Part shown: positions 2,938-63,592 of the stretch, one piece after another
How positions within the stretch are numbered: position 1 is the stretch's first letter
How the letters are laid out: each line of letters starts with the position of its first letter
Program-made: the position numbers and the translations under genes
From: Deltaproteobacteria bacterium
GTDB taxonomy: Bacteria; Desulfobacterota; GWC2-55-46; DRME01
Direction: 5' to 3'
Assembly (NCBI GenBank): GCA_011375175.1
Contig: DRME01000072.1
Coordinates: 1,782 to 65,781 of the forward strand
DNA length: 64,000 nt
Notes under the pieces: model-generated
What the model was told of the DNA's origin: nothing
The model's database searches: none
Seen by the model: the letters and a program-made list of their open reading frames with translations, nothing else

Positions 2938-3085
2938 GGCAGTCTCCTTGGTTAGACGCCTTTATCAAGCCCGCTGATCTTATTAAAAAATACCCAGCTT
3001 GGCAAGGAAAAACATGGAACCGGCGCCGTCGCTTCGGGCCTTCGGACGGGAGGACTCAAGTTGCGGCCCTCACGATGCGATAAGC

Positions 3086-3480
3086 TTATATAATTGCCCT
3101 GAGGGAACCTTTTTGAAAAAAGGTTCCCTCAGACTCCCTCCAAAAACTTTCGACGCGAGTTGGTTTCCCCCTGTTTTGCCTGGCAAAACAGGGGGAAACC
3201 AACTCGTATCGAAAGTCTTTGAAGGGGGTCTGGGGGAAACTTTCTACAGAAAGTTTCCCCCAGAGCAATTAAAGGGGGCGTCCTGCCCGTGCCGGCCGTC
3301 TCGGGGGGGCTGTACCGGGGGGTTCGGGCCGCAAAGGCGTAAAAATCCCGCCTGGCGCGGGCCGAACCCCCGGTACAGCCGAACATCCGAATAACATACG
3401 ATGGGTCCGGGAGAAATGCGGGCCTGTGGCCCTTTTTCAGAAAGTCTCTCCCGGTGAAACAAATCAGAGCTTCCTATTGA
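3086..3480. repeat. MITE-like modular hairpin repeat element, copy 1 (family described in findings)
   Basis: Perfect palindrome cctgagggaacctttttgaaaaaaggttccctcag. Long imperfect inverted repeat ccaaaaactttcgacgcgagttggtttccccctgttttgcc / ggcaaaacagggggaaaccaactcgtatcgaaagtctttgaagg. Hairpin ggctgtaccggggggttcgggccgcaaaggcgtaaaaatcccgcctggcgcgggccgaacccccggtacagcc. Right end aatcagagcttcc. The same modules recur at 10 other sites. Confidence 0.8.
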
Positions 3481-3519
3481 TAATCATCGTCCGATATGGT
3501 AAGTAGCCTCCTGGCTCGC

Positions 3520-3700
3520 CGCCGTGGTGGGGAGGTGGGATGGTGTGCCTGAGTCTTTGAAGGGGGCGTCGTATGCCCGCGGCGGTTGCCTCGGGGAGGC
3601 CGTACCGGGGTTCGGGCCGCAAAGGCGTAAAGATCCCGCCTGGCGCGGGCCGAACCCCGGTACGGCCGAAGAACCGAGGCACGGACGCCTCAATCGGGGG
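3520..3700. repeat. Second partial copy of the same repeat family (ccgtaccggggttcgggccgcaaaggcgtaaagatcccgcctggcgcgggccgaaccccggtacggcc module)
   Basis: Shares the conserved cgggccgcaaaggcgtaaaaatcccgcctggcgcgggccgaa core and flanking ttgaaggggg with copy 1 and the other copies. Confidence 0.7.
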
Positions 3701-8184: not shown

Positions 8185-8345
8185 GGCCGGAGCGCAGAGT
8201 GCGGTTCTTGCCGGCTCCGGGCGGGGGCGGCCCCCGCGAACAAGGGTGTGACGGGAGGCGGTAGGGGAGCGGCTTGCGCCGGGATCGCCCGGGACCCGCT
8301 GCCGTCGCCGGGAAGAGGCCGCCAAGCGGCTAAGGATGATTCGTT

Positions 8346-10745
8346 ATGAAAGGCATCCTCCAAATAGCTGTCGGTTTGCCTGTGACCCGTGAAGGTTCCC
8401 CGCCCGGCCGCCTGCCGCGCAGTCTCGCGGCGACACTGGTGGCCGCAGCGGTCCTTCTCTTCACGGCGGCGGACCTGTCCGCCCCGCCGAGCGCATGGGC
8501 GTCGGTGTCGGCCCGTCACGGCGACGAGGTTTCGTCGCAGAGAGTCGAGATCGACAGCATCGCCATACTCCCCTTCGAGAACCTCACCGACTACCCCGGC
8601 GCTTCGAAGCTCGTGGCGGACATGGTCGCTCAGGAGATCGGGCGCAGGGGCTGGCGCGTGGTCTCCGGCGCCAGGCTCGTCGACGAGTACCTGGCCAAGA
8701 GACGCATCCGCTACACCGGCGCCATCACGAGGACCAGCGTGCGCGAGATGCGCAAGATCTTCGGCATCGACGCCGTGCTGCTCGGATCGATAGACCTCTT
8801 TTCCGCAGAGGGGCGCGACTCGGCGGTGAGCATCAACATGAGGCTCGTCAACACCGTCGACGGCTCCATCATGTGGGCCGATAACCTCGCCTACGCCGGG
8901 CTCGACTTCCAGGGCATACTCGGCCTCGGGACGATCACCTCGCCGGAAACACTCTCGGAGAGGATCGTGCACCGCCTCGTCGCCGGTCTGCCCGACAGCT
9001 ACGCCGTCGAGCTCTCGGAGCTGAGTCCCTACGAGATAGAGAAGATATACCTGAACCCCAAGGTGGCCAAGGGGGGGCAGCCCATCGACCTGCGCGTGAG
9101 GTTTCTGAGCCTCAAGGGCGAGCTGCCCGCGGCGGTCACGGCCGTCATCGACGGCCGCCAGACCGAGCTGCGCCGCTCTCGCGGCGGCTACTACGACGCC
9201 GAGATACCGGCCCCCCGGCGGGAGGGGCTCTATCCGGTGACCATAATCGCCCGCCCCAGGGACTCCCATAAGGCCTTCGTCTTCGACGCCGCCGCCCAGG
9301 TGAGCGTGGACACAACTCCGCCCGACGTGGACGTCTCCCTCTCCAGGACGATCTTCGCCCCCAGAAGGCGCGGCTACGTCATCTTCACGCCCAGGCTCAA
9401 CAACTTCGACATCGTCGACGAATGGAAGATGGAGATACTCGACGCCGACGGCCTCGTCATCAGAAACGACAGGGGCTTCGGCAGTCTCCCCAAGGGGCTC
9501 GTCTGGAAGGGCGAGACCGACAAGAGGCGCATGGTCGACGACGGCACCTACACCTACAGGTTCATCATCAAGGACCCGGCGGGCAACACGAGCACCGTCG
9601 ACGGCAAGCTCCAGGTCAAGAACAAGCCGCCCGACATCAAGGTCGACGTCGACAAGGTGAGGGGGCCCGTCAGGGCGAAGGACAAGCTCATATTCGGCTT
9701 CAACTACGAGGGGCGCGAGAGGGTCAGGTCCTGGCGGCTCACCATAAACGACAAGGACGGCCGGGTGATCGACATCATCGACGGCGAGGGCCCCCTGCCC
9801 GAGCGGCTCGACTATCCCCTCAAGGCCGGGCTCGACGTGGAGAGGATGACCTGCTCCGTATCGGTCGTCGACAGCGACGGCAACGTCACAAAGCTCTCCA
9901 ACGTGTGGATAGACCTCGACAGAGGCGAAGAAGAGGGCGGGCTCATCTTCTCCTTCAGGTACGACCGCAGCGAGGAGATAAGCGCCTGGAGACTCGCCAT
10001 ACTCGACGCCTCGGGCGCCGAAATCGACGTCATCGACGGCGAGGGCCCCCTGCCCGAGCGCCTCGAATACCCCCTGAAGGAGGGGGTGGACGCAAGCGGG
10101 CTCTCCTTCGTGGTGACGGCCGTCGACAAGGTCGGCAACCCCATGAGGCTCACCAACATCAAGGTTGAGGACCGGGTCTCCGACAAGCTCATCTTCTCGT
10201 TCAACTACGACACGAGCGAGCCCATAGAGTCGTGGCGGATATCCATACTCGGCGAGGACGGCGAGGTCCTCGACGTCATCGACGGCGAGGGGCCCCTGCC
10301 CCGGCAAATCGAGTACCCCGTGGCTCCGGGCGTTGACGCGACGAACCTCGCCTATTCGGTGACGGCCACAGACAGGGCCGGCAACCCCTTCAAGCTCGAC
10401 AAGGTCAAGGTCGACGTGGAGGAGCTGCGCAAGTTCGTCAGGGACAAGCTCATCTTCTCCTTCGACTACGACCCGCAGGAGAAGATAGAGCGCTGGCAGA
10501 TCGCCATCCAGGACCTCGACGGCCGGATACTCGACATAATAGACGGAAAAGGAGCGCTTCCATCGCGGGTCGAGTACCCCGTGGGCCGGGACTACGACCT
10601 CAGCAAGATGGCCTTTGTCGTGACGGCCACCGACAAGGCCGGCAATCCCTTCAAGTATTCCAAGGCGCTGCCCACGATCCTCTCACGCAAGCGACCCTTT
10701 GCCGAACTGCGCGGCGACGGCGGTTTCATGATGAAGGATTTCTGA
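8346..10745 (+). CDS. Large lipoprotein: N-terminal TolB-N/LpoB-like domain (paralog 2) followed by 5 tandem FlgD-Ig-like (about 80 aa) repeats
   Basis: IDSIAILPFENLTDYPGASKLVADMVAQEIGRRGWRVV...AVLLGSIDLFSAEG...INMRLVNTVDGSIMWA. Then repeats of KLIFSFNYD...W(R/Q)(L/I)xIxDxDGxxIDxIDGEGPLPxRxEYPxxxGxD...V(T/S)AxDKAGNPxKL, four clear copies plus one degenerate copy containing DGTYTYRFIIKDPAGN. Confidence 0.65.
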   Translation: MKGILQIAVGLPVTREGSPPGRLPRSLAATLVAAAVLLFTAADLSAPPSAWASVSARHGDEVSSQRVEIDSIAILPFENLTDYPGASKLVADMVAQEIGRRGWRVVSGARLVDEYLAKRRIRYTGAITRTSVREMRKIFGIDAVLLGSIDLFSAEGRDSAVSINMRLVNTVDGSIMWADNLAYAGLDFQGILGLGTITSPETLSERIVHRLVAGLPDSYAVELSELSPYEIEKIYLNPKVAKGGQPIDLRVRFLSLKGELPAAVTAVIDGRQTELRRSRGGYYDAEIPAPRREGLYPVTIIARPRDSHKAFVFDAAAQVSVDTTPPDVDVSLSRTIFAPRRRGYVIFTPRLNNFDIVDEWKMEILDADGLVIRNDRGFGSLPKGLVWKGETDKRRMVDDGTYTYRFIIKDPAGNTSTVDGKLQVKNKPPDIKVDVDKVRGPVRAKDKLIFGFNYEGRERVRSWRLTINDKDGRVIDIIDGEGPLPERLDYPLKAGLDVERMTCSVSVVDSDGNVTKLSNVWIDLDRGEEEGGLIFSFRYDRSEEISAWRLAILDASGAEIDVIDGEGPLPERLEYPLKEGVDASGLSFVVTAVDKVGNPMRLTNIKVEDRVSDKLIFSFNYDTSEPIESWRISILGEDGEVLDVIDGEGPLPRQIEYPVAPGVDATNLAYSVTATDRAGNPFKLDKVKVDVEELRKFVRDKLIFSFDYDPQEKIERWQIAIQDLDGRILDIIDGKGALPSRVEYPVGRDYDLSKMAFVVTATDKAGNPFKYSKALPTILSRKRPFAELRGDGGFMMKDF

Positions 10746-13484: not shown

Positions 13485-15038
13485 ATGGTCACGGATAGAA
13501 GGCGTCCGCCGGGGCTCTTCGACGGCATACCGGCGGACGGGAACTTTCAGGCGGCCTCCGCCGTCCGGTCCGCCGCATCAAGGGAGATCGTGAACAGCTT
13601 CGCACTCTTTGCAAGGTTTCTTGTCGTCCTGACGGTCCTTCTGCTTCCGGGCCGCTCTTTCGGGTTCTGGCCCTTTTCCTCGCCCCGGGAGCCCTACCTC
13701 GCCAAGGTGGGCGAGAAGGTCATAACGACCGGGGAGTTCGTCGAGGCCGTAAACAAGCTCCATACGTCTAACCGCGTCGGCAAGGCCCTGGCCGAAAGCC
13801 ACGACAAATCCTTCACAAAACAGAACTACCGCGCCTTCCTCGACGAGATGATAGACAAAAAGCTCATCATCCTCGACAGCGAGAGTCTCGGTCTTGACGA
13901 GGGGGCGCTCTTCAGAAGCAGGTACGACACCTTCCGGCTCAACCTCTTTCTCGAAAGGCTCCGCCAGGAAGAGGTGCTCGACAAGGTGACCGTCACCGAC
14001 GACGAGGTCAAGGCCCGTTTCTTCGAACGGCTCCGCAAGGCCGAAGAGGAGCGCAGGAAGAAGGCCGAGGAGGAGGGGGAGGAAGAAAAGGAGCAGCCCG
14101 AGGAGACCAAGACCCCGGAAGAGAGGTTCGAGGCCCTCCCGGCGGTGGAGAAGGGCAACATCTGGCGCGAGATTTACAGGGAGAAGGTTTCGGCCAGGGA
14201 GAAGGAGTACTTCGAGGCCGTCAAGTCCAAGGCCCAGGTGGTCGTCTACGAAGAGAACCTCGAGGATATCTCCCTCGACGACCCGGACCTGGGCGAGAGG
14301 GTCGTGGCCGAGGTGGACGGCGACCCAATCTACGCCGTGGAGCTCGTAAACCGTGACAGCGTGCCCGGCCCGGAGCAGATGCGCCGCCGCCTCGACGCGC
14401 TCATACTCCACCGCGCCCTCGACCACGAGGCCCTCTCAAGGGGCTACGAGGAGGACGAAGAGGTCCGCAAAAAGCTTGCCGCCTACAGGGAAAAGCTCCT
14501 CGTCGACATCTTCAAGCGCGAGATCATACGCCCCCTCGTGGTCATCACCGACGAGGAGGTGAAGAAGTTCTACGAGGAGAACAAGCAGCGCTACCGCAAG
14601 CCCGATGAGGTGGACTTCAGGATCATCATCGTCGAGACCGAGGACGAGGCCCTCTCGCTCCTCGAAGAGCTGCGCAAGGGGGCCGACTTCGCCTATCTCG
14701 CCAAGAAGCGCTCCATAGACTCCTCTGCCGAGAAGGGCGGGCTCATGACGTCGGTGCCGGTCAACGTCTTTGCGCGGGAGATATACACCCTCTTCTACAG
14801 GTCCCACAAGGGCGATATCCTCGGTCCATTCACGCTCAACGGCAAGTACGCCATAATAAAGCTGCTGGAGATGAGCAAGGGCGAGTACGTGCCCGTTGAA
14901 AAGGTCAGGTCTTCCATCGTGAAGCGCCTGGGCAGGGAGAAGTTCGACGAGCAGCTCAACGCCTATGTGGCGCGTCTGCGAGAGCACGTCCCCATCGAGA
15001 TAAACGAGGACGAACTCAAGCGGATAAGCGGTGAGTGA
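13485..15038 (+). CDS. SurA/PpiD-like periplasmic chaperone with parvulin-type PPIase domain
   Basis: N-terminal SurA-like helical region (LAKVGEKVITTGEFVEAVNKL...) and a PPIC-type rotamase domain (DEVDFRIIIVETEDEALSLLEELRKGADFAYLAKKRSIDSSAEKGGLMTSVP...GDILGPFTLNGKYAIIKLLE). The start is uncertain; a signal-like segment FLVVLTVLLLPGRSFG lies a little downstream of 13485. Confidence 0.65.
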   Translation: MVTDRRRPPGLFDGIPADGNFQAASAVRSAASREIVNSFALFARFLVVLTVLLLPGRSFGFWPFSSPREPYLAKVGEKVITTGEFVEAVNKLHTSNRVGKALAESHDKSFTKQNYRAFLDEMIDKKLIILDSESLGLDEGALFRSRYDTFRLNLFLERLRQEEVLDKVTVTDDEVKARFFERLRKAEEERRKKAEEEGEEEKEQPEETKTPEERFEALPAVEKGNIWREIYREKVSAREKEYFEAVKSKAQVVVYEENLEDISLDDPDLGERVVAEVDGDPIYAVELVNRDSVPGPEQMRRRLDALILHRALDHEALSRGYEEDEEVRKKLAAYREKLLVDIFKREIIRPLVVITDEEVKKFYEENKQRYRKPDEVDFRIIIVETEDEALSLLEELRKGADFAYLAKKRSIDSSAEKGGLMTSVPVNVFAREIYTLFYRSHKGDILGPFTLNGKYAIIKLLEMSKGEYVPVEKVRSSIVKRLGREKFDEQLNAYVARLREHVPIEINEDELKRISGE

Positions 15039-17016
15039 GGAGGGAGAGTTGAGGATCTACAGGGTCTTGAGTCTTTTGCTCCTTGCCGTTGCGGTCGGCC
15101 TTGCCGGCGGGTGCGCGCCTCAGCCCAAAAAGGCCTTCAGGAAGCAGTGCGTCGACTGCCATCAGGCATCGCTCGACAAGTACAAGGCCGGAACCCTGCA
15201 CGCCCCGGTGGCGGAGAACAGGTGCGAGGAGTGCCACAAGCCCCACGGTCTTCTCGGCGGCCTGAGCCTGCGCTCCGACGGCGCGCCGCTGTGCTACCAG
15301 TGCCACGAGGGGCAGAAAAAGACGCTGGAGAAGAAGAGCGTCCACCGGCCCTTCGGGGACGGCAAGTGCCTCTTCTGTCACGACTCGCATTCGTCATACA
15401 GGGCGCCCGGCAGCAGGGGGCTTGTCAGCGCCGCGGGCAACGACCTCTGTTACCAGTGCCACGACAGGGACTCCTACAGCGGAGGCAAGACGGTCCACGG
15501 CGCGGTTGAGAAGGGTTGCATGAGCTGCCACGACCCCCACGCCTCGGACCTTCCCTTCGGACTCAGGGCCGAGGGCGACAGACTGTGCCTGGACTGCCAT
15601 GACCCCGGGGCCTCGGCCTTCCGCAGCGGCCACTCCGGTTACGACGTCGAGGGCACGGCCTGCCTGGCCTGTCACGAGCCCCATTCGACCGACAAGGACC
15701 GGCTCGTGAGGGCCTACGTCCACGAGCCTTTCGCAAGGCGTGCCTGCGCCGACTGCCACCGGGGACCGGACTCCAGCCCCCCCCTTGCCCTCAAGGTCGG
15801 CGGCGAGCGGCTATGCTACGAGTGCCACGACGAGCAGAGGGCCGAGTTCAACAGGACCCACAGCCACGAGCCCGTGGCCGGGGGGCGCTGCACGACCTGT
15901 CACGACCCCCATGTCTCCGACTACGAGAGCATCCTCTCAAGGCCCCAGAAAGAGCTCTGCTACGGCTGCCACACCGACTCGGCGGCCCGTCACGACAGGA
16001 AGTTCGTCCACGGCGTGGTGGAGGAGGGGAAGTGCTCGGCCTGCCACCTGCCCCACGGCTCGGACAACAGGATGATCCTCAAGGCCACGGGCGCGGCCCT
16101 CTGCTACGAGTGCCACTCCAGGGACGGCTTTGCCGACGCCGTGACGCACGCCCCCATACGCGAGGGCGACTGCCTCAACTGCCACGACCCCCACGCCTCG
16201 GACGAGCCGTCCCAGCTTACCGCGGCGCTTGGTCCGCTCTGCTACGGCTGCCACAGCGCCGAGAAGGAGCGCTTCACCAAGGTCTCCATGCACCCCAAGG
16301 TGAGGGAAGGGGCCTGCACGGCCTGCCACTCGCCCCACGCCTCTGCGAGGGAGGGGCTCCTCAAGAGCGGGCGCCGGGAGCTGTGCTTCACGTGTCATGA
16401 GAGCTACGCAAAGCTTCGGGACATGGCGGGAGAGCACCCCGTGGTGAGCCGCGGCGAGTGCCTCAGCTGTCACGACGCCCACGGCAGCGTGAACGCCATG
16501 CAGCTTCTGGCCGTGGACAGCTCGCTGTGCTACAAGTGCCACAAAGAGACGAAGGCCGCCTTCGACAGTGCGCCGACGAGGCACAGGCCCATATCGCAGG
16601 GCAGGTGCCTGGTCTGCCACATGCCCCACGGCAGCAAGATCGAGGGCTCGCTGCCCAGGCCGCTCGACGCGCTCTGCTACTCCTGTCACGACGGCCTCCA
16701 GGCAAGGCTCAAGGACATATCGCTCACCAGCCACAAGCCCGTCTCCGAGGGGCGGTGCGACAGTTGCCACGACCACCACGTCGGCGACAACGACAACCTC
16801 CTCGTCGCCACGGGCGCGGCCCTGTGCGTGGAGTGCCACGGCGAGCGCATGAAGACACCCGGGTACGCCGCGGCCCACGGAGGCATCCCGACCGAGGGGG
16901 TCGAGTGCCTCGGCTGTCACGAGCCCCACGCGGCCGAGGACGCCAAGCTGCTCCACAAGGTGAAGCATGAACCCTTCCGCAAGAGACTCTGCGAAAAGTG
17001 CCACCAGAAGCTTTGA
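15031..17016 (+). CDS. Giant multiheme c-type cytochrome, about 26 CxxCH motifs, of the doubled-CxxCH (paired CxxCH...CxxCH) type
   Basis: 661 aa. Signal peptide/lipobox-like LLLAVAVGLAGGC. CxxCH sites counted: CVDCH CEECH CYQCH CLFCH CYQCH CMSCH CLDCH CLACH CADCH CYECH CTTCH CYGCH CSACH CYECH CLNCH CYGCH CTACH CFTCH CLSCH CYKCH CLVCH CYSCH CDSCH CVECH CLGCH CEKCH. They form a regular repeat CxxCH-x(~10-15)-CxxCHxxH. The antisense ORFs 15016..15390 and 15937..17004 are artefacts. Confidence 0.85.
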   Translation: MSEEGELRIYRVLSLLLLAVAVGLAGGCAPQPKKAFRKQCVDCHQASLDKYKAGTLHAPVAENRCEECHKPHGLLGGLSLRSDGAPLCYQCHEGQKKTLEKKSVHRPFGDGKCLFCHDSHSSYRAPGSRGLVSAAGNDLCYQCHDRDSYSGGKTVHGAVEKGCMSCHDPHASDLPFGLRAEGDRLCLDCHDPGASAFRSGHSGYDVEGTACLACHEPHSTDKDRLVRAYVHEPFARRACADCHRGPDSSPPLALKVGGERLCYECHDEQRAEFNRTHSHEPVAGGRCTTCHDPHVSDYESILSRPQKELCYGCHTDSAARHDRKFVHGVVEEGKCSACHLPHGSDNRMILKATGAALCYECHSRDGFADAVTHAPIREGDCLNCHDPHASDEPSQLTAALGPLCYGCHSAEKERFTKVSMHPKVREGACTACHSPHASAREGLLKSGRRELCFTCHESYAKLRDMAGEHPVVSRGECLSCHDAHGSVNAMQLLAVDSSLCYKCHKETKAAFDSAPTRHRPISQGRCLVCHMPHGSKIEGSLPRPLDALCYSCHDGLQARLKDISLTSHKPVSEGRCDSCHDHHVGDNDNLLVATGAALCVECHGERMKTPGYAAAHGGIPTEGVECLGCHEPHAAEDAKLLHKVKHEPFRKRLCEKCHQKL

Positions 17017-17039
17017 GGGCGCAGTCGATGGTTAAGAGG

Positions 17040-18299
17040 ATGGTATACGCAAAGCGACGGAGACGGCCCGCGGCGGGCGCCCTAACGGCCCTCGCCGGCG
17101 CCGCCGCCCTGCTCGCCGCCTCGGTCCTCGGGCCGGCCGCGGCGGAGGCGGGCGAGGTGAGTCACAGGGTGACAAAGCAGCTCTGTGCCGAGTGCCACGA
17201 CACGTCACGCGCCCTGGCGGCCAAGCCCTACCAGCACAGGCCCGTCGAGCTCGGCAAGTGCACGGCCTGCCACAACCCCCATGCCTCCAGGCACGCCGGG
17301 CTGCTCAGCGAGGAGGGCGGCAGGCTCTGCTTCAACTGCCACGAGCAGGACGAGGGCTTCAAGGGCGCGGTGCTCCACGCCCCCTACGCCTCGGGCCGCT
17401 GTCTCGAGTGTCACGAGGCCCACGTCTCCGACAACGCCGGACTCCTGAAGGTGGCCGGCGGCAAGGGCTGCTACCTCTGCCACAAGCGCGATGAGATAGT
17501 GGCGGGGGCCAACGTCCACCCGGAGGTGAAAAAGGACCACTGTACGGCGTGCCACAACCCGCACTCTTCCGACAACGTGGGACTTCTCACCGCCGACAGG
17601 AACTCGGTGTGCGCCCGCTGCCACTACAAGGACGGCGCGCCCGTCATCCCATGCCCCTACGAGGTGGCCGGCACCGACTGCCTCGGCTGTCACAGCCCCC
17701 ACTCGTCGGACAGGAGAGCCATCCTCAGGGCCTCGCTCCACGACCCCTTCGAGAAGAAGGACTGCGCCGCCTGCCACAGCGGAGCCGACGGCGGCGAGGT
17801 CAGGCCCGGCATAGCGGTGTGCCTGAAGTGCCACGAAAAGGTCATGGAAGGCTTCAACAAGCTGGCGAGCCACCTCATGCCGGCTCCCGGCGGCGGCAAC
17901 GCCTGCTCCAACTGCCACAACCCCCACGGCTCGGACCGCATGGCGCTGCTCAGGGACAAGGAGTCGCGCATCTGCTATAGATGTCACAGCGACGCCAGGC
18001 AGTTCGTCGCCGACAGCCTCTACGTCCATCCCGACCTCGAAAAGTGCACCGAGTGCCACGCCTCGCACGGCTCCAACGAGCCGTTCCTCATGGCCCGCGG
18101 GGCCGAGACCTGCTCGTCGTCGCGGTGCCACGCCACACAGGGCACTTTCACCCATCCCATAGGAGAGGACGTCATCGATCCCCGCTCGGGAGGCGCCATG
18201 GACTGCAACACCTGCCACAACCCCATGGGCTCGCCGGAGGAGACGATACTGCGCGACGAGAAGGACAGGGGGCTGTGCATACAGTGTCACCAGGTTTAA
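17040..18299 (+). CDS. Multiheme c-type cytochrome (about 15 CxxCH)
   Basis: SD aagagg before ATG 17040; alternative ATGs at 17028 and 16998. Signal peptide ALTALAGAAALLAASVLGPAAAEA. Motifs CAECH CTACH CFNCH CLECH CYLCH CTACH CARCH CLGCH CAACH CLKCH CSNCH CYRCH CTECH CNTCH CIQCH. Confidence 0.8.
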   Translation: MVYAKRRRRPAAGALTALAGAAALLAASVLGPAAAEAGEVSHRVTKQLCAECHDTSRALAAKPYQHRPVELGKCTACHNPHASRHAGLLSEEGGRLCFNCHEQDEGFKGAVLHAPYASGRCLECHEAHVSDNAGLLKVAGGKGCYLCHKRDEIVAGANVHPEVKKDHCTACHNPHSSDNVGLLTADRNSVCARCHYKDGAPVIPCPYEVAGTDCLGCHSPHSSDRRAILRASLHDPFEKKDCAACHSGADGGEVRPGIAVCLKCHEKVMEGFNKLASHLMPAPGGGNACSNCHNPHGSDRMALLRDKESRICYRCHSDARQFVADSLYVHPDLEKCTECHASHGSNEPFLMARGAETCSSSRCHATQGTFTHPIGEDVIDPRSGGAMDCNTCHNPMGSPEETILRDEKDRGLCIQCHQV

Positions 18300-18318
18300 G
18301 AGAGAGGGAGTGAGTTTC

Positions 18319-19305
18319 ATGGCTTCTGGGATTTACAGGTCGGCGCCGGCGGGAGTGAGCGAGCGCGCCCCGGCTGCTTCGGTGCGGGCTGTGCTGGGCC
18401 GGAGCCTCTTCGCCGCGGCCGCCGTTGCGGTCTCCCTTGTTGCGCCGCAGGCCGTATCGTCGCAGGACGAGGGGACCGAGATGCTGGCCGTCATCAGCGG
18501 CAACGAGATGATAGGGCGGCTCAAGAACCCCTCGGCCCTCTTCTTCGACGAGGTGAAAAAGCGCATATACGTCGCCGACACGGGCAACAGGCGTCTCGTC
18601 TCCTTCGACAACGAGTACAAGTACCTGGCCGAGCTCTACCTCGAGGAATTCGACCTCCCTTCCGGCATCGTCAAGGACAGCGCCGGTCTCTTCTACGTGG
18701 TGGACAGCGGCAAGGCCGCCATCCTCAGGATAGACGTGCGCAACAACGTGGTCGAGCCCATCGAACCAAGCGGCGTGCCCGAGGCCGGAGAGCCCTTCAT
18801 CCCCGGCAGGATCGCCATCGACGGCAGCGACACACTCTACGTCGTCGACAAGCTCAACAAGAGGATACTGGCCTTGGACGGCGACGGCGTCTTCGTGGCC
18901 CAGTACACCGTGCCGGGCGACGAGAGGCTCACCGGTTTCGCCGACGTGAGGGTGGCCGAAAACGGCGAGGTCTACGCCATCGACACGCTCAGCGGCACCA
19001 TCTATATATTCGACGGCAGTGGCGAGGTGGTCAAGAGTTTTTCCAGGCGCGGCACGGGACGGGGCATGTTGCGCTTCCCCACGAGCATCGCCGTGGACCG
19101 CAACGGCCATATCTACGTCGCCGACCGCCACGGCGGCATGGTCCTCGTCTACGACCGCAGCGGCATATTCCTGCGCGCCATTTCAAGGCCCGGCTTCCGC
19201 GAGGGCGAGCTCTCCTACCCCTTCTACATCTACCTCGACGGGGAGGGCAGGCTCTATACGATAGACGTAACGAGGATACAGGTCTTCAAGGGCGAGAAGG
19301 GATGA
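18319..19305 (+). CDS. Secreted NHL-repeat six-bladed beta-propeller protein
   Basis: ATG 18319 with SD gggagtga. Signal peptide. Blades: RIYVADTGNRRLVSFD, LFYVVDSGKAAILRID, TLYVVDKLNKRILALD, EVYAIDTLSGTIYIFD, HIYVADRHGGMVLVYD, RLYTIDVTRIQVF. Confidence 0.75.
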   Translation: MASGIYRSAPAGVSERAPAASVRAVLGRSLFAAAAVAVSLVAPQAVSSQDEGTEMLAVISGNEMIGRLKNPSALFFDEVKKRIYVADTGNRRLVSFDNEYKYLAELYLEEFDLPSGIVKDSAGLFYVVDSGKAAILRIDVRNNVVEPIEPSGVPEAGEPFIPGRIAIDGSDTLYVVDKLNKRILALDGDGVFVAQYTVPGDERLTGFADVRVAENGEVYAIDTLSGTIYIFDGSGEVVKSFSRRGTGRGMLRFPTSIAVDRNGHIYVADRHGGMVLVYDRSGIFLRAISRPGFREGELSYPFYIYLDGEGRLYTIDVTRIQVFKGEKG

Positions 19306-19311
19306 CCCCCC

Positions 19312-20124
19312 ATGTCCCGCCCTCTCCTCACAACAGTGGTCCTCGCGGCCGCGCTCCTGCTCGTCGGCTGCGAGCCGCCGGTAAAAAGGGTTGACAACCC
19401 GGCGCTCCTCGAAGAGCATCCAGGCCTGGACACCGTGCCGGTCTACAGGAAGGGCTCCGTATCCTTCAGCACTGCCGAGGCCCTGAGGCTCGCCGAGCAG
19501 GACAGGAAGGCGGCGCTGGAGGAGCGTTTCAGGGGCGAGGAGACCTCGTCGCTGGAGATACCGGACCCCTGGATCCCGCCGGCCTACCGCAGCGCATCCT
19601 CGCTACCCAAGGCCCTGCGGGCCTTCCCCAAGGACAAGTTCGGCTATCCCGACTGGACGGCCTCGGTACAGGAGGGGATCATCATGCCCAGGGCGGGGCT
19701 TCTGAACAAGAAGGTCAAGGGCGAGTACCAGAGGGACTACTGGCAGTGGGCCGTCTCCTCGGACGTGATGCTCAAGCTCAGCGACAGCGGAGAGGTCAAG
19801 AAGGGCAAGGAGATAACCCTCGAGGACGTGGAGCGCGAGATAGAAGACGCGCCCTACGACCTGGACATAGTCTTCGAGATCAACGACCGGCTCATGGCCA
19901 ACGTCCTCTTCCCCCACAAAGTGCACTCCTACTGGCTGGGCTGCAAGGTCTGCCATCCCGGCATATTCGTCGCCAAGAAGGGTGCCAACGTCTTTACCAT
20001 GTACGACGTCTGGGAAGGCAAGTACTGCGGCCGCTGTCACGGCAAGGTGGCCTTTCAGCCCAAGGGGTTCGAGAACTGCCAGCGCTGCCACAAGGTCAAG
20101 AAGAAAACCATGGGCATAAAGTAG
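19312..20124 (+). CDS. Lipoprotein c-type cytochrome (3 CxxCH)
   Basis: MSRPLLTTVVLAAALLLVGC lipobox. The C-terminal domain has CKVCH, CGRCH, CQRCH. The stop is immediately followed by a MITE-like repeat. Confidence 0.7.
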   Translation: MSRPLLTTVVLAAALLLVGCEPPVKRVDNPALLEEHPGLDTVPVYRKGSVSFSTAEALRLAEQDRKAALEERFRGEETSSLEIPDPWIPPAYRSASSLPKALRAFPKDKFGYPDWTASVQEGIIMPRAGLLNKKVKGEYQRDYWQWAVSSDVMLKLSDSGEVKKGKEITLEDVEREIEDAPYDLDIVFEINDRLMANVLFPHKVHSYWLGCKVCHPGIFVAKKGANVFTMYDVWEGKYCGRCHGKVAFQPKGFENCQRCHKVKKKTMGIK

Positions 20125-20130
20125 AGGAAG

Positions 20131-20530
20131 CTCTGATTTATTGCACTGAGGGAACCTTTTTGTAAAAGGGTCACAGACCCACGGTTCCCTCAGACTCCCT
20201 CCAAAAACTTTCAACGCCCTGCGGCTCATCCCGATTTTGCTTGCAAAATCGGGATGAGCCGCAGGGAATTAAAAGTCTTTGAAGGGGGTCTGGGGGAAAC
20301 GTGGGCCTATGGCCCTTCTACAGAAAGTTTCCCCCAGATTGCCCGCGTCGGCTCCTCGGAGGCTGTACCGGGGGGTCGGGCCGCAAAGGCGTAAAAAAAT
20401 CCCGCCTGGCGCGGGCCGCCCCCCCGGTACAGCCGAAGATCCGAATAACATACGATGGGGCAGGGGGAAACGCGGGCCTGTGGCCCTTCTACAGAGAGTT
20501 TCCCCCGGTGCAATGAATCGGAGCTTTCTC
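20131..20530. repeat. MITE-like modular hairpin repeat element, full copy with both terminal inverted repeats
   Basis: Left end gaagctctgatttattgcactgagggaacc. Modules ctccctccaaaaactttcaacg, hairpin ctgcggctcatcccgattttgcttgcaaaatcgggatgagccgcag, aaagtctttgaaggggg, gggggaaacgtgggcctatggcccttctacagaaagtttccccc, ggctgtaccggggggtcgggccgcaaaggcgtaaaaaaatcccgcctggcgcgggccgcccccccggtacagcc. Right end aatcggagctttc. Confidence 0.85.
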
Positions 20531-20591
20531 GGTCGGAGTCCATCTCCGGCCGTTCTTGACGACTGGGACGTCTCGGCTTCAGGATTGTCAT

Positions 20592-20837
20592 GTGAGCGAG
20601 TATATCCTCACCTTCGGCTCCGCCCACAAGGCCCTCAAGGCCGAGAGCGTTCTCAGGGAGGCGGGCGCCGCCTTCCGTCTCATGCCCGGGCCCAGGGGGA
20701 TGGACAGGGCCTGCGACCTCGTCATCGCCGTCGATGGCGAAGGAGCGCTCTCGGCTGCGATGGAAGCCCTGGAGCGGGGCGGCCCTGCCGTCAGGGCCGT
20801 CTACCGCAGAGAGGGGGCCCGTTACGTCGCCGTCTGA
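20592..20837 (+). CDS. DUF3343-like small protein
   Basis: Starting at GTG 20592: VSEYILTFGSAHKALKAESVLREAGAAFRLMPGPRGMDRACDLVIAVDGEG...; size and motif pattern resemble DUF3343 proteins. The start is uncertain (the ORF track begins at 20556). Confidence 0.4.
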   Translation: MSEYILTFGSAHKALKAESVLREAGAAFRLMPGPRGMDRACDLVIAVDGEGALSAAMEALERGGPAVRAVYRREGARYVAV

Positions 20838-20888
20838 CCGGCCGCGCGGCCGGTTCCCCGCGCGAAGGCGTGGCCTCCGCTTTCGGCC

Positions 20889-21770
20889 ATGGAACTCAGA
20901 TACCTCGAGATATTCTGCAAGGTCGTCGAGTGCCGCAGCTTTTCGAAGGCCGCGGCCTCCCTCTGTCTCACCCAGTCCACGGTCAGCATCCACATCAAGG
21001 CCCTGGAAAGAGAGCTCTCCGTAAGACTCCTCGACAGGCTGGGCCGCACCGTCACGCCCACCAGGGCCGGCGCCATCCTCTACCGCTACGCCGGTAAGAT
21101 AGTGCGCCTCAAGCACGAGGCCCGCCAGGCGATAGACCAGTTCACGGGCACCATGAAGGGCGTGCTCGAGGTCGGGGCGAGCACCATACCCGGAGAGTAC
21201 ATCCTGCCTCGCTTGATAGGCGAGTTCAAGCGCGCCCATCCCGATGTGCGGCCCGTGCTGCGGGTGGGAGATACGCGCTCCATCTACGGGGAGGTGCTGG
21301 CGGGCCGCGTGGAAGTCGGCGTGGTCGGCTCGCCCATAAAGGACAGGAACGTGCGGTGCGCCCCCTTCGCAAGCGACGAGATGGTCCTTGTGGCGCCGCC
21401 GGACTTCGACCGCTCCGCGCTCGCCCCCGGAGAGCTGGCCGGCGTGGCGCTGCTCGCCCGCGAGGAGGGTTCGGGCTCGCGCAGCTCCGTCGAGGCCCGT
21501 CTCGCCGAGGCGGGCGTGGACCCGGCCACGCTCGTCTACGCCGCCAGTCTCGGCTCCACCCAGGCGCTGAAAGAGGGGGTGAAGTCCGCTATGGGGCTCG
21601 CCTTCATCTCCAGGATGGCCGTCGCCGAGGAGCTCCGCTCCGGTACGCTCAAGGCCGTGGAGGTGAAGGGCCTGAACCTCGATAGGAGCTTCTACGTCAT
21701 CACCCACCGCCTGAGGTTCCTCTCGCCCATAGCCGTCTCCTTCCTCGATTTCCTCTCGGCGCGTCCGTAG
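20889..21770 (+). CDS. LysR-family transcriptional regulator
   Basis: N-terminal HTH MELRYLEIFCKVVECRSFSKAAASLCLTQSTVSIHIKALERELSVRLLDR, and a LysR substrate-binding domain (293 aa). Confidence 0.85.
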   Translation: MELRYLEIFCKVVECRSFSKAAASLCLTQSTVSIHIKALERELSVRLLDRLGRTVTPTRAGAILYRYAGKIVRLKHEARQAIDQFTGTMKGVLEVGASTIPGEYILPRLIGEFKRAHPDVRPVLRVGDTRSIYGEVLAGRVEVGVVGSPIKDRNVRCAPFASDEMVLVAPPDFDRSALAPGELAGVALLAREEGSGSRSSVEARLAEAGVDPATLVYAASLGSTQALKEGVKSAMGLAFISRMAVAEELRSGTLKAVEVKGLNLDRSFYVITHRLRFLSPIAVSFLDFLSARP

Positions 21771-21855: not shown

Positions 21856-22200
21856 TACAGGTCAGGTTTGTAAAAGGGTCACAGACCCACGGTTCCCTCA
21901 GACTCCCTCCAAAAACTTTTAACGCCCTGCGGCTCATCCCGATTTTGCTTGCAAAATCGGGATGAGCCGCAGGGAATTAAAGGTCTTTGAAGGGGGTGTC
22001 CTGCCCGCATTGGCTGGCCGGGGTGGCGGTCCTCTGGAGGTTCGGGCCGCAAAGGCGTAAGAAAACCCCGCCTGGCGCGGGCCGAACCTCCAGAGGACCG
22101 CCACAGACATCCGAGTAACATACGGTGGGGGAGGGGGGAAACGTGGGCCTATGGCCCTTCTACAGAAAGTTTCCCCCGGGGCAATTAATCAGAGTATCCC
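21856..22200. repeat. MITE-like modular hairpin repeat element copy
   Basis: ggtttgtaaaagggtcacagacccacggttccctcagactccctccaaaaacttttaacgccctgcggctcatcccgattttgcttgcaaaatcgggatgagccgcagggaattaaaggtctttgaaggggg ... cgggccgcaaaggcgtaagaaaaccccgcctggcgcgggccgaa ... gggggaaacgtgggcctatggcccttctacagaaagtttccccc ... aattaatcagagtatcc. Confidence 0.85.
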
Positions 22201-23394: not shown

Positions 23395-23470
23395 GCCTCT
23401 TGTAAAGGGCCGGAGACCTCCGGTCCCCTCGGACTCCCTGAAGAAAGTTTCCCCCATGGCGGCCGACCGG
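23395..23470. repeat. Truncated copy of the repeat family (gagacctccggtcccctcggactccctgaagaaagtttccccc)
   Basis: Shares the gactccct...gaaagtttccccc modules with the full copies. Confidence 0.5.
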
Positions 23471-29185: not shown

Positions 29186-29327
29186 GACCCCTCGTAGGCC
29201 CCCCTCGCAGGGGCCTGGAAGGGGGGAGCGCCGCGGGGGCTGCGCGGGAAGTTTCCCCGGGGAAATTGACAATCGTCGTCAAAGGATGGTATACACAGTG
29301 TGCCGTCCTTTCGAACGACCGTCAGGG

Positions 29328-29640
29328 AAGCTCTGATTAAGGAAACTCCGATTTATTTCGCTCTTCGAGCCGCGTCGCCTCTTGCGACGGCCGGAGGATA
29401 TGAGATTCCTTTGGCCCCAATAGAAAGTCTTTGAAGGGGCGTCCTCCCCGCGCCGGCCGCCTCGGGGGGCGGCGCCGGGGGTGTCCGGGCCGCAAGGGCG
29501 TAAAACCCCGCCCGGCGCGGGCCGGACACCCCCGGCGCCGCCGGAGATCACAATAACATGCGAGGGGCGCGGGGGGAGGGGCGGACCTATGGCCCTTCTT
29601 CGGAAAGTTTCCCCCGGAGTGCTTAATCGGAGCTTGCTTG
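29328..29640. repeat. MITE-like modular hairpin repeat element copy inserted between fabG and acpP
   Basis: Left end ggaagctctgattaagg. Modules aaagtctttgaagggg, gtccgggccgcaagggcgtaaaaccccgcccggcgcgggccggac, cccttcttcggaaagtttccccc. Right end gcttaatcggagcttgc. Confidence 0.8.
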
Positions 29641-31889: not shown

Positions 31890-32100
31890 TCCCAGGCGGA
31901 GCCTCTTCGTGAAGGGGCTTGAGGGCCGAGGTTCGTTCGAGTCGCCTTGTGTGTCGTTATGTTTCCCCCCGCCCCCGCGAGGGGTCGGGCCGCAAAGGCG
32001 TACCCCCCCCGCCTGGCGCGGGCCGACCCCTCGCGGGGGCGGGGGAAGTGGATCTGAAGAAGGGGGGGCGGTTCCCCCGGCGTAAATCGATCAGGGCTTC
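31890..32100. repeat. Partial copy of the repeat family (cgggccgcaaaggcgtacccccccgcctggcgcgggccga core) between rpiB and glyA
   Basis: Hairpin gccccccgcgaggggtcgggccgcaaaggcgtacccccccgcctggcgcgggccgacccctcgcgggggc; ends aatcgatcagggcttccc. Confidence 0.7.
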
Positions 32101-32123
32101 CCTGAGATGGTAGGAGACGTGAG

Positions 32124-33399: not shown

Positions 33400-33600
33400 G
33401 TTTGAACGGCGGGGGAACCTTTGAAAAAGGGGCCGCGGAGCCGCAGCCGGCCTCCGACCCCTGTCCCCGGTGGTTCCCAGCGGCGTCCTCCGGGAGGTCG
33501 GGGCGCAAGGGCGTATAATCCCGTCCCGGCGCGCCCCGACCTCCCGGAGGACGCCGTGAAGGCGCGGTCAAAGGGAGATCTCCCCCGGTGACGCCCTGTC
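33400..33600. repeat. Degenerate copy of the repeat family after glyA
   Basis: gggaacctttgaaaaagggg, and ccgggaggtcggggcgcaagggcgtataatcccgtcccggcgcgccccgacctcccgg (same architecture as the cgggccgcaaaggcgtaaaaatcccgcc core). Confidence 0.6.
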
Positions 33601-34889: not shown

Positions 34890-34980
34890 CCTTTCATTAC
34901 CCTGGGGGAGACGTGGGCCTATGGCCCTTCTACAGAAAGTTTCCCCCAGGGCAATTAATCAGGGTTTCCATCTTTCCACC
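34890..34980. repeat. Short copy (right-hand modules only) of the repeat family immediately upstream of the ANTAR regulator
   Basis: gggggagacgtgggcctatggcccttctacagaaagtttcccccagggcaattaatcagggtttcc. Confidence 0.75.
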
Positions 34981-40601: not shown

Positions 40602-40889
40602 CCGGCCTCAGGCGGCCCACCGCCGTGCCGCATCCCTCTTGGCTTGTTCCGGGCGAGATTCGGGAGCCTCCCGGCAGAGGCCTCTTCTCATGGGCAGCCG
40701 CGAGGCCTGAGCGCGCCAGGCGGGGTTTGTTACGCCTTTGCGCTCCGGCCTCGCGGCCTCCGCTACGCGGGCAGGCCGCAATAGACGGGGAATCCGAGGC
40801 GGGCGCTGGGCCCGGGCTCCCTTCTTCGGAAAGGGTTCCACGCCGGCAGTGAACGAATCATATCTTCCAGAGGGGAAAGAGGAACGTCC

Positions 40890-41749: not shown

Positions 41750-41965
41750 ACGGCCTCATATGATCGATTACCCTGAGGGAACCTTTTTGAAAAAAGGTTC
41801 CCTCAGACTCCCTCCAAAAACTTTCAATACGAGTTGGTTTCCCCCTGTTTTGCCAAGCAAAACAGGGGGAAACCAACTCGTATTGAAAGTCTTTGAAGGG
41901 GGTCTGGGGGAAACGTGGGCCTATGGCCCTTCTACAGAAAGTTTCCCCCAGGGTAATTAATCAGA
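41750..41965. repeat. MITE-like modular hairpin repeat element copy
   Basis: gatcgattaccctgagggaacctttttgaaaaaaggttccctcagactccctccaaaaactttcaatacgagttggtttccccctgttttgccaagcaaaacagggggaaaccaactcgtattgaaagtctttgaagggggtctgggggaaacgtgggcctatggcccttctacagaaagtttcccccagggtaattaatcagagtttgcc; nearly identical to copy 1 at 3086. Confidence 0.9.
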
Positions 41966-41999
41966 GTTTGCCGAACATTTCATCAAAAGGAGGGGGACT

Positions 42000-44192: not shown

Positions 44193-44428
44193 ACCGTCTC
44201 GACGAGACCCCGAGCCCCGCGGGGAAGCTCTCTGAGCAGGCCCGCCTCCCCCGCCCGCACACCACTTCGATAACTCTGACTCGGGCCGAAGGGCCTCGTT
44301 CCCTTCCTTCGGGCATGAACGCGGACGCGGCTCGAAGAGCGAATGAGAGGTCTTTGGAGGTTCCCCCGGTCTCGTTACGGCGGGAGAGGGTTGTCTCTTA
44401 CGGGCGGGGCGGAACACGCCCCGCCCGT

Positions 44429-49153: not shown

Positions 49154-49500
49154 GTGGCGCAAGTGACTACGCAGCGTTCCGTACTCTGTGAGGGAGTTGG
49201 GGCATTCTGTTGCCGGCTGATAGAGTATTGTAGTCGAAGCGGCACGGCCACCTGCTTCCCGGCCGAGAGCCTGTTGTTCGACCGCCCTCTCGCAGCCTCG
49301 CTCGCTGAGGCAAGGCTCGACACCATATGCTTCTCCATTGATGACTTTGGTGGGACAGCGGATGCCGTTCGGCGGAAGCGGGTCGCATTCGTCAAGGTAA
49401 GACGGGTGCTCGAAAACGTCCTTACAGGGCGCGGCGGGGCAAACGACCGAAGATCGAGATATGCACGACCATATTCGATTCTGCAAGCGGTTGAAATCAA
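49154..49500 (+). pseudogene. Decayed fragment of a radical SAM/SPASM gene, paralogous to the central part of 58971..60128. It lacks the Cx3Cx2C N-terminus and is frameshifted after ...ENVL
   Basis: IEYCSRSGTATCFPAESLLFDRPLAASLAEARLDTICFSIDDFGGTADAVRRKRVAFVKVRRVLENVL aligns with IEHCSRNGMATYFPTNSLLLDRDTAASLVEAGLDTIYFSLDDVGETGDAIRGSDGSFAKVKQALENVL of the intact gene. The next conserved segment PKIEVCTTVSNM appears as KIEICTTIFD in a different frame (about 49448-49490) and is followed by a stop. Confidence 0.6.
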
Positions 49501-49516
49501 GGGACCGGAGGATGGC

Positions 49517-51310: not shown

Positions 51311-51891
51311 CGATCGCCACCGTGGACGGTATGAAGAACCGAATAGTATTGTTTTTCGCCATGGCCGACTCAGACATCGGCAACGTCTTTTCGGGACGGC
51401 CTGTTAATACTCCGGCCACAAGTATGCCTGAATATGCTATAGTAATCTCGTGGAAAAGATAGAGACTCGCAGACTATCCGAAGCAGTGTTTGAGGACAAG
51501 GGCCTTAAGCCGCTGCGGTTGATGAAGAAGGGGATTGGTCGCCTCCGAAGTGGAGGAAGTTGCAGGTCTACATGGAGAGACTGACGGGTTGGTGTCCGTT
51601 CCGGGCGATCATCAGCTCGGATAAGGCGCTCAGCTCCATGGACGGCTTTCGCGGTAGGGGCCGGAACGCTTTTGAGAGTATTTCCGGCGTGAAGATCCAC
51701 TATACTTCCATGGAAATTGTGTTTAACTACCTTGAGGGAGCCGGGGGCTTATACGCCGGCTCCCCCGGCGGAACACATCAGAGTCTCCATAATAGATATA
51801 GCCGGTCGACTTGACGGCCACCGTTGGGTATCGAAGAAGTTTCCTGAGATGGGTTAAATCGACTTTTCTTCCATCAGTGTACGCCTGAGTT

Positions 51892-53010: not shown

Positions 53011-53039
53011 AGGTGGGGGCCGTATACGACTTGCAGGTT

Positions 53040-53340
53040 GACTTTGCTGGTGGTCAGGGAAGCTCTGATCGATTACCCTGGAGGAAATTTGCTGTAGAAG
53101 GGCCATAGGTCTGAGGGAACCGCGGGGCTATGCCCCTTTTATTACCCTGAGGTAACCTTTTTGTAAAAAGGTTCCCTCAGACTCCCTCCAAAAACTTTTA
53201 ACGCCCTGCGGATCACCCCGATTTTGCTTGCAAAATCGGGGTGATCCGCAGGGAATTTAAAGTCTTTGAAGGGCCTGGGGAAAACGTGGGCCTATGGCCC
53301 TTCTACAGAAAGTTTCCCTCAGTGTAATAAATCAGAGCTT
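53040..53340. repeat. MITE-like modular hairpin repeat element copy inside the low-GC island
   Basis: Left end ggaagctctgatcgattaccctggagg. Modules cctgaggtaacctttttgtaaaaaggttccctcag, ctccctccaaaaacttttaacg, ctgcggatcaccccgattttgcttgcaaaatcggggtgatccgcag, aaagtctttgaaggg, gaaaacgtgggcctatggcccttctacagaaagtttccc. Right end aataaatcagagcttcc. Confidence 0.85.
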
Positions 53341-53383
53341 CCATAAGAGTATAAACACTCCAAGCCTAAAAGGATGATGAACT

Positions 53384-61869: not shown

Positions 61870-62076
61870 TTGTCATTGCGAAGAGTGATTTCCGCGACGG
61901 AGCAATCAAGTGTCTGTTTTATTCAAAGACGAAAGGGCTTTGCGGTCCTCCGCTCGCCATGACCTCATTTCGGGTTTTCCTCATCCTGATATTGCGACGA
62001 TGGGTGTCACCGACTAAGCGGGAGCAGACACAGGCCGCCACCGCATGAGCGTCAATGAACAAGTAGTGGTTATCGT

Positions 62077-63573: not shown

Positions 63574-63592
63574 GCCTCGGTCGGAGATGCCG

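Follow-up and report, generated by a model that had tools for sequence, protein, structure and literature searches.

A short, non-coding palindromic repeat family resembling miniature transposons in uncultured Thermodesulfobacteriota and other bacteria

[quoted passage not shown] In the 64,000-nt stretch of contig DRME01000072.1 of the Deltaproteobacteria bacterium assembly GCA_011375175.1 that was analysed here (the window), the sequence at positions 20126-20528 and its kin are a real family of non-coding, palindromic repeats, short, not catalogued before and resembling such miniature transposons. The repeats are new as a family, but their general kind is already known, and some of their features are atypical.

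Among the described families, Correia/NEMIS of Neisseria, RUP of Streptococcus pneumoniae and Nezha of cyanobacteria are likewise non-coding elements of 100-250 bp with terminal inverted repeats, TA-containing flanks, a high copy number and stable hairpins. The present family agrees with MITEs in its size and lack of coding capacity, in its terminal inverted repeats and in its dispersed copies, which show presence and absence between loci. Unlike Correia, RUP and Nezha, it has no known parent insertion sequence, about 160 nt of its interior are conserved across phyla while the outermost 7-8 nt are lineage-specific, and each end forms a local hairpin of its own, the centre being a hypervariable, perfectly paired stem. 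A modular hairpin build is also known from BOX of Streptococcus pneumoniae and from ERIC/IRU of enterobacteria, in which interchangeable hairpin boxes give size variants by gain or loss of internal blocks at fixed positions; the present repeats have no sequence relationship to them, and BOX is without clear terminal repeats and target duplications. Chunjie, the MITE of Geobacter uraniireducens Rf4, measures 178-235 bp, is A+T-rich and carries 21-bp terminal repeats and 9-bp direct repeats; it resembles our family in being deltaproteobacterial, very stably folded and inserted within operons (PMC3184786), and its published description sets it apart from the repeats studied here, whose terminal repeats are about 13-20 bp long and whose YTAR flanks (Y, pyrimidine; R, purine) cover 2-4 bp. 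REPINs and BIMEs, which derive from repetitive extragenic palindromic (REP) sequences, offer a further likeness as inverted hairpin doublets with a variable spacer, extragenic and long-lived, with singlet remnants and mosaic motifs (PMC3116915). Inverted doublets with singlet remnants are found in our family too, whereas the 20-40 nt REP palindrome with its GTAG foot is not: the units here are about 55-60 nt long, no GTAG marks their foot, and the subfamily of the window has terminal repeats and YTAR.

Anatomy, modules and distribution of the repeat

Self-BLAST, repeat finding and direct reading gave 12 copies or fragments in the window, 69-403 nt long and together 2524 nt (3.9%), so that the copy at 40694-40776 joins the eleven or more that a preliminary description of this DNA had reported as intergenic. 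That setting is borne out by the gene calls of the source contig, none of which overlaps any of the 12 copies. The open reading frames (ORFs) inside the copies are short and at chance level, and a composite six-frame/stop-free translation query found no protein family, its only hits being two gene calls that extend into repeats. The 13-nt terminal repeat GGAAGCTCTGATT matches 14 times in the window at up to 2 mismatches, against 1.66 expected, and 0 of 100 shuffles reach 14. A good terminal repeat on both sides, which had been ascribed to full copies in general, is present only at 20126-20528, 29326-29637 and 53058-53342; the left end has decayed in 3079-3474 and 41753-41971, and the remaining window copies are one-ended or solo modules. 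Two-ended copies were found elsewhere, on a second contig of the same genome (L004, ends at 8322/8524 and 17290/17509) and in eight copies of the genome NC_groundwater_1635. Folded as single-stranded DNA (ssDNA), 20126-20528 reaches -146.7 kcal/mol (z = -16.5), and the basic 219-nt copy at 41753-41971 reaches -83.5 kcal/mol (z = -18).

The basic unit, of about 200-220 bp, consists of YTAR, a terminal repeat, module a, the flank bL, a central perfect hairpin, the flank bR, module c, the second terminal repeat and YTAR, the terminal inverted repeat being 13-20 nt long (GGAAGCTCTGA...TCAGAGCTTCC). Searching the collected loci and the window with a hidden Markov model of the 62-nt half-site gave 471 matches, and 109 complete cores (doublets) are present in the 125 loci and the window, each made of a T-half (AAAGTTTTTGGAGAGAGTTTGAGAGAACCTTTTTACAAAAAGGTTCTCTCA) and a C-half (AAAGTCTTTGAAGGGGGTCTGGGGGAAACTTTCTACAGAAAGTTTCCCCCA) inverted around the central hairpin. 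A half-site of about 57 nt combines AAAGTYTTTGRAGGGRGTYTG with a 13-bp hairpin. Module a corresponds to the subterminal 13-bp hairpin of the T-half, module c to the hairpin of the C-half, and the b flanks to the inner parts of the halves, so that module a is an inverted paralogue of module c. The differences between T-half and C-half are kept across genomes. In both halves the loop reads TACA on the outward-reading strand, so that the dyad symmetry reaches even unpaired bases, as would be expected of two transposon ends. The stem formed by the flanks is imperfectly paired, two U·G pairs and two positions at which A faces C being invariant in 26 of 26 sequences from about 15 metagenome-assembled genomes (MAGs). 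Outside the hairpins, the MAG to which the window belongs (the vent MAG; hydrothermal-vent metagenome assembly ENA ERZ940665, run SRR4453772, in which an 87-kb contig holds the window) and NC_groundwater_1635 have ...TTTTTCAGAGCTTCC in common, with ...TTTTCAGCAGCCTG in its place in other MAGs and ...GGCTCTTGGGAATTC in the Planctomycetota MAG, the outermost 7-8 nt varying between lineages.

Hairpins a and c each exist in two forms, a short one and a long one with an extra apical mini-hairpin. In NC_groundwater_1635 (L105 3306-3590; L019, L020, L023, L048, L058, L066, L102, L108) the terminal hairpins have another apical insert, e.g. CGACCCATCCTTCGGATGGGTT, and L105 has an additional hairpin between bR and c; since the vent MAG and NC_groundwater_1635 carry different apical inserts, the same positions take unrelated inserts in each lineage. 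Module d, a separate hairpin of about 80 nt, was seen in the vent MAG only, eight times in the window and four times on L004, either solo or within composites. The modules a to d and the inner hairpins quoted in the preliminary description all lie where it had placed them: bL and bR are each present five times in the window, both arms occur for both inner hairpin types, and module c is found six times at up to 4 mismatches. Each genome has a few multi-copy subfamilies, set by the central hairpin. The claim of the preliminary description that the modules are interchangeable agrees with the ten vent-MAG cores, among which seven of the eight combinations of a (short or long), central type (1 or 2) and c (short or long, or d instead) are realised, so that modules have been exchanged between copies or gained and lost repeatedly. 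Copies of 310-400 nt resemble a type I element (repeat-a-b-c-repeat, as in 41753-41971) joined to a type II element (repeat-x-bR-d-c-repeat, as in 29326-29637), and the linker from c to the terminal repeat holds TTAA, a possible internal target. Immediately beyond the termini, MAGs from different lineages carry a conserved block, TTAAATATCTATCACAGGT (L050 at about 790-830 and 990-1030, inverted and on both sides; L122 at about 1925-1950), which suggests a further outer module or a favoured landing site.

The two gene calls that overrun repeats led to L004, where at least seven copies occur in 21.7 kb, and to L005, a 56%-GC contig of another assembly that carries one copy; a further 8.6 kb of the source contig (L126) holds one more. 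Element density on the two vent-MAG contigs is one per 3-6 kb. Two short contigs from an independent run (L002 and L127) are 100% identical to the source and both terminate inside elements, because multi-copy repeats break short-read assemblies. Gene callers are misled as well: in the 'SagB/ThcOx family dehydrogenase' P0121 (L004 10001-10083) about 27 residues at the N terminus are translated repeat, and a methyltransferase gene on L126 starts inside an element (20883 onward), both starts being likely annotation artefacts. Annotation and binning of many uncultured Thermodesulfobacteriota would therefore benefit from a model of the family.

When one genome per GTDB species was scanned with a degenerate 27-nt pattern, made of the flank bR/bL and the foot of the adjacent hairpin, at least 120 stretches were found, against a chance expectation that we estimate at about 0.01. 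The matches listed all come from MAGs, and the carriers among them are many groundwater and sediment Thermodesulfobacteriota/'Deltaproteobacteria', one Planctomycetota, one Brocadiia and Nitrospinota, together with several Oscillospiraceae, Ruminococcus and Eubacteriales from the gut. An earlier genome scan with a module-c pattern that required a long loop gave no matches, the sole match of a scan of JGI metagenomes (L003) proved on reading to be a chance match, and neither a scan of viral contigs (IMG/VR) nor blastn of the basic unit against PLSDB plasmids and INPHARED phages found any. Rfam 15 gave no match to the whole window at the gathering threshold; below it, at an E-value threshold, 20100-20560 drew generic microRNA-like hairpin matches only, all far sub-threshold. 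Full-text searches of a paper library by four diagnostic oligomers did not find the sequence, and those on deltaproteobacterial MITEs and on MITEs linked with TTAA returned no paper. The absence of an Rfam match at the gathering threshold accords with the claim of the preliminary description that the family was previously unrecognised, and the copies on L004 and in many other genomes show that it does not consist merely of local duplications.

In gut Firmicutes and in a Brocadiia MAG the conserved half-site occurs as a singlet (L029 2959-3092 and 4008-4140; L090 204-259 and 1562-1621; L057 97-161, 3139-3222 and 5930-6012), within a different unit of about 135 nt that is followed by GCGTCCC-type heptamer repeats. 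Two such units, inverted and facing inward, enclose one gene in two genomes, a ZIP transporter gene in L029 and a histidine kinase gene in L090.

Mobility, flanking sequences and the conserved core

YTAR follows 28 of the 51 ends that have a recognisable terminal motif, against about one expected by chance (TTAA 17, TTAG 6, CTAA 4, CTAG 1). Nine clean copies have identical 4-mers on both sides, namely TTAA/TTAA in five copies of NC_groundwater_1635 and in L122, TTAT/TTAT in L004 (17290-17509), TTAG/TTAG in L105 (about 3306-3590) and CTAA/CTAA in L043, and four more flank pairs differ by one base. The flanks fit a staggered cut at a TA-centred target, with either a 4-bp YTAR or a 2-bp TA duplication accounting for the data. 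Insertion sequences of the IS5 group duplicate 4 bp of YTAR and those of the IS630/Tc1-like group 2 bp of TA, and the ends of both the IS5 group and the IS630 family begin GGAAG..., which offers a lead, and only a lead, to an enzyme of this kind as the mobilising candidate.

The position of the element also differs between orthologous loci. In one conserved four-gene operon, L092 has it between c4 and c3, L053 after c3 and L021 between c6 and c5, and L009 lacks it; likewise, a c2-family gene and a kdsC-like gene are separated by a spacer that holds an element in L122 and by an empty 62 nt in L119. An empty site that could be aligned at the nucleotide level was sought among the collected loci and none was found, and the gene families that recur beside elements there are generic ones only.

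On these features taken together, the best-supported reading, which we hold to be somewhat probable, is that the repeats are MITE-like, non-autonomous DNA transposons whose ends are long and structured and which are moved by a transposase encoded elsewhere. Under such a scheme a DDE transposase from elsewhere in the genome, of the IS5 type (4 bp, YTAR) or of the IS630/Tc1 type (TA), would bind the ends and insert the element at YTAR/TA with a duplication of 2-4 bp, and the inverted paralogous halves would be the counterparts of an insertion sequence's left and right ends. The window copies of 310-400 bp, including 20126-20528, may then be mosaics that arose by nested insertion or by recombination with a second, d-carrying element type, and frequent exchange between copies would shuffle the modules.

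A number of observations weigh against the transposon account. The preliminary description had proposed a check for target-site duplications, and the matching flanks seen in nine clean copies elsewhere have no counterpart in the window, where 0 of 5 two-ended copies has matching flanking 4-mers; the unmatched flanks are consistent with older or rearranged mosaics. Even in the clean copies a duplication is unproven, because TTAA is palindromic and, among the non-palindromic flanks, direct identity exceeds inverted identity by only 3:1. Among the genes tabulated for L001, L004 and L126 none has a transposase domain, and no transposase-like ORF family recurs in the 125 loci. In the loci examined there is neither a pair of terminal repeats at the spacing of a full-length insertion sequence nor an autonomous insertion sequence that shares these ends. 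In the wider family a recognisable terminal motif is found at only 51 of 151 ends, and many copies, e.g. those of SMAG_U8218, seem to end at the hairpins. Conservation is also distributed unexpectedly, since conservation between hosts would be expected, for an ordinary MITE, only at the ends that the transposase binds. Here it is the core of about 160 nt that recurs near base for base across several phyla of uncultured bacteria (Thermodesulfobacteriota, Planctomycetota, Nitrospinota and Firmicutes), and the termini are less conserved: a 50-mer of the C-half is identical in the vent MAG and L005 and differs by one base in a Ruminococcus MAG (L090), and its near-identity contrasts with the 64% identity of FabH between the vent MAG and SMAG_U8218.

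Possible explanations for this conservation are that the long structured halves serve as binding sites, that the element has spread horizontally, or that the core has its own function or enzyme. The last of these can be taken further, to a dyad-symmetric core of about 160 nt that would be the true selected unit, either a long-lived replicator or a functional nucleic-acid structure, with a dedicated enzyme (REPIN-like or new) and with terminal repeats as lineage-specific additions; we hold this to be doubtful, though if true it would represent a new sort of persistent genomic replicator.

Closely related, and also unlikely in our judgement, is a REPIN/BIME-like origin, in which REP-like hairpins inverted around a variable spacer hairpin would be moved as ssDNA by a RAYT-like, domesticated HUH tyrosine transposase, terminal repeats and YTAR belonging to some sublineages only. 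REPINs are described as hairpin-forming inverted REP doublets (PMC3116915), and the core is an inverted doublet of hairpin units that also occurs as singlets in the Firmicutes and Brocadiia MAGs; the core is conserved where termini are variable or missing, the elements are dense, extragenic and biased to gene 3' ends, and perfectly paired stems are as expected for hairpins recognised as ssDNA. The missing GTAG-type tetranucleotide and the much greater length of the units speak against such an origin, and the terminal repeats and direct YTAR flanks of the window subfamily fit a staggered cut. A Y1/RAYT transposase gene was not seen in about 0.9 Mb of loci, where a single-copy gene would easily be missed.

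Covariation of the stems and gene context

The stems vary almost exclusively by paired changes. In the 12 copies of module d, 95.3% of the cells of 30 pairs are paired and 20 pairs show double-sided changes; 0 of 500 shuffles match the observed values, and slid controls are 36-49% paired. An alignment of 26 core sequences is 97.6% paired, its variation being centred on a 7-bp window of the central stem (74 double-sided changes vs 1 one-sided) and the rest being nearly invariant. Among the ten vent-MAG copies, four stem positions are polymorphic, each with full compensation, and uncompensated substitutions were not seen. The 97 distinct central hairpins contain 1715 Watson-Crick and 30 non-Watson-Crick pairs; the latter include only 3 G·T and 7 A·C, the equivalent of G·T on the opposite strand. 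Among the stem mismatches there is no G·T excess on either strand, and the strand asymmetry that would mark a transcribed strand is absent.

Selected RNA usually tolerates G·U, and does so on one strand only. The compensatory covariation noted in the preliminary description is real, but to infer selection on RNA from it is unjustified, because the pairs are almost all Watson-Crick, there is no strand bias and the loops are dyad-symmetric, which argues for a constraint or mechanism at the DNA level; the covariation points to maintenance of DNA palindromes at least as well as to selection of RNA. Template switching between the arms of quasi-palindromes, by which a change in one arm is copied to the other in one step and perfect hairpins can be made or maintained, is documented as a mutational process (PMC7202029, PMC8794818, PMC5941160). 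Selection for transposition competence, whereby copies arise from intact masters alone, would produce an identical pattern. If the family is a transposon, its perfect variable stems may thus be kept at the DNA level by arm template switching, by selection for transposition competence or by both, and an RNA function would not be needed. Sequence-specific selection must act as well, because homogenisation has left the invariant mismatches of the flank stem in place. As a clean example from nature of stem covariation at saturation with no G·U intermediates, the family is useful for telling selection on structure from template-switch homogenisation wherever covariation is taken as evidence for functional RNA.

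For 105 oriented elements, placed with crude ORF-based gene calls, convergent intergenic regions outnumber divergent ones by 15 to 2. A bias to gene 3' ends is usual for extragenic palindromes and can be caused by purifying selection against insertions in promoters. Between co-directional genes the element has the same orientation as the genes in 14 cases and the opposite one in 18. Most a-b-c cores of the vent MAG run in the direction of the flanking genes (7-8 vs 1), and the count is 12 vs 4 when solo d modules are added, a weak trend. A terminator role, which had also been proposed, finds no support: between 19900 and 22400 there are 3 terminator-like sites against 2.0 expected, hence no enrichment, and no T-tracts follow the hairpins. 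The only such sites inside elements in that interval are weak 5-bp minus-strand stems in the loop or apex of d (20401-20415 and 22067-22081), where a 5-bp GC stem is followed by ATTTTTTT or GTTTTCTT, not above chance.

These data bear directly on the idea that the elements, or at least the core, have been exapted as RNA structures acting in cis, for instance as stabilisers of mRNA 3' ends, as attenuators or as processing sites, whose covariation would come from selection on an RNA fold. The extreme stability of the folds, the strong covariation, the 3'-end bias, the copies within operons (e.g. between fabG and acpP) and the co-orientation of the vent-MAG cores would all suit such a role. The idea nevertheless seems to us quite improbable: orientation is unbiased in the family as a whole and weakens in the vent MAG once solo d modules are counted, the variable stems are essentially without G·U on both strands, the loops are symmetric in both halves and so not confined to one transcript strand, and T-tracts or an excess of terminator-like sites are lacking.

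That the core might be a DNA site for a protein, bound by a nucleoid protein or recombined by a site-specific recombinase like an integron attC, whose conserved and imperfectly paired flanks enclose a variable paired centre, is suggested by the four invariant non-Watson-Crick positions of the flank stem (26 of 26) beside a variable but always paired centre and by the two inverted 135-nt units around the single ZIP transporter gene of a Eubacteriales MAG, but is very improbable, as the R''/R' boxes (RYYYAAC / GTTRRRY) are absent on reading, no cassette arrays or adjacent integrase are present and the copies are dispersed among unrelated housekeeping genes.

Individual copies in the window and their surroundings

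The copy under study, 20126-20528, is a full composite on the plus strand and begins 2 nt past the stop codon of a cytochrome gene (19312-20124), in line with the earlier remark that several copies abut stop codons. It comprises the left terminal repeat (20126-20138), a long-form a (about 20146-20193), bL (20195-20216), a type 2 central perfect hairpin (20219-20264), bR (20272-20288), c (20292-20335), d (about 20361-20436), a second c (20463-20506) and the right terminal repeat with 2 mismatches (20516-20528). All other copies but one are also on the plus strand. The composite at 3079-3474, with its decayed left end, has an exact module a (3098-3132), bL (3134-3155), a type 1 central hairpin (3160-3202), bR (3212-3228), a short c (about 3232-3261), an exact d (3308-3380), a second c (about 3404-3450) and a perfect right terminal repeat (3462-3474); it lies between divergent genes, a radical SAM gene that starts at 2937 and a DUF4382 gene that starts at about 3774 (mapped from L126 coordinates). 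Next to it, the fragment 3548-3677 consists of a bR-like flank and a module d that is 98% identical to the d core at 3319-3370.

A third composite, 21856-22199, is left-truncated and without a left terminal repeat: a partial a is followed by bL (21903-21924), a type 2 central hairpin (21927-21972), bR (21980-21996), a d with a different, fully compensated outer stem (22028-22099, arms 22028-22049 and 22078-22099), c (22134-22177) and the right terminal repeat (22187-22199). The decayed remnant at 23395-23470, found by direct reading and missed by BLAST, retains a hairpin that resembles a, together with the 3' arm of c and a degenerate terminal repeat. The second architecture is represented by 29326-29637, in which a terminal repeat (29326-29338), a second repeat-like copy (29341-29353) and an unrelated small hairpin precede bR (29424-29440), d (about 29469-29541), a c-like hairpin and the right terminal repeat (29625-29637); this copy is inserted between fabG and acpP, within the fab operon. 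The copy 31970-32101 runs from a solo d (about 31965-32046) through a degenerate c to a right terminal repeat (32089-32101), and at 33482-33556 there is a solo d whose compensated changes reach the inner stem (GGGGCGC...GCGCCCC). The solo right end 34901-34969 has c (34904-34947) and a terminal repeat (34957-34969), and 40694-40776 is a solo d on the minus strand.

The basic a-b-c unit of 219 nt, 41753-41971, has a decayed left end, an exact a (41772-41806), bL (41808-41829), a type 1 central hairpin (41834-41876), bR (41886-41902), c (41906-41949) and a right terminal repeat with 2 mismatches (41959-41971). The two-ended copy 53058-53342 carries a terminal repeat (53058-53070), an inverted c-like hairpin (about 53076-53120), an a with 2 mismatches (53146-53180), b with a type 2 hairpin that shows two compensated changes (53206-53251), c (53277-53320) and a terminal repeat (53330-53342). 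A further segment flagged by BLAST, 44208-44343, contains none of the modules and was dropped.

The copy 53058-53342 does lie in a stretch of lower GC, as had been described. The stretches 49400-54100 and 61800-63700 have about 45-50% GC against 62.6% for the window overall and may have been acquired horizontally; the former holds a GNAT-family gene and a sulfatase gene beside the element. Between 20126-20528 and 21856-22199, the elements bracket a pair formed by a small Se/S-carrier-like gene and a LysR regulator gene (20592-21770). Relatives of this regulator are named 'selenium metabolism-associated', the nearest being only 59% identical, and one Logan contig consists of exactly this pair, its ends in the repeats. 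Upstream of the copy under study, 15031-20124 holds clustered multihaem cytochrome genes in which internal repeats containing CxxCH are numerous (repeat families D2, D4, D9, D10, D18 and D19), followed by genes for an NHL-repeat protein and a cytochrome c7-like protein. Three tandem repeats of about 250 bp at 9768-10403, within the long ORF 8346-10745, are 65-75% identical to a reference copy and are probably a repeated Ig-like domain.

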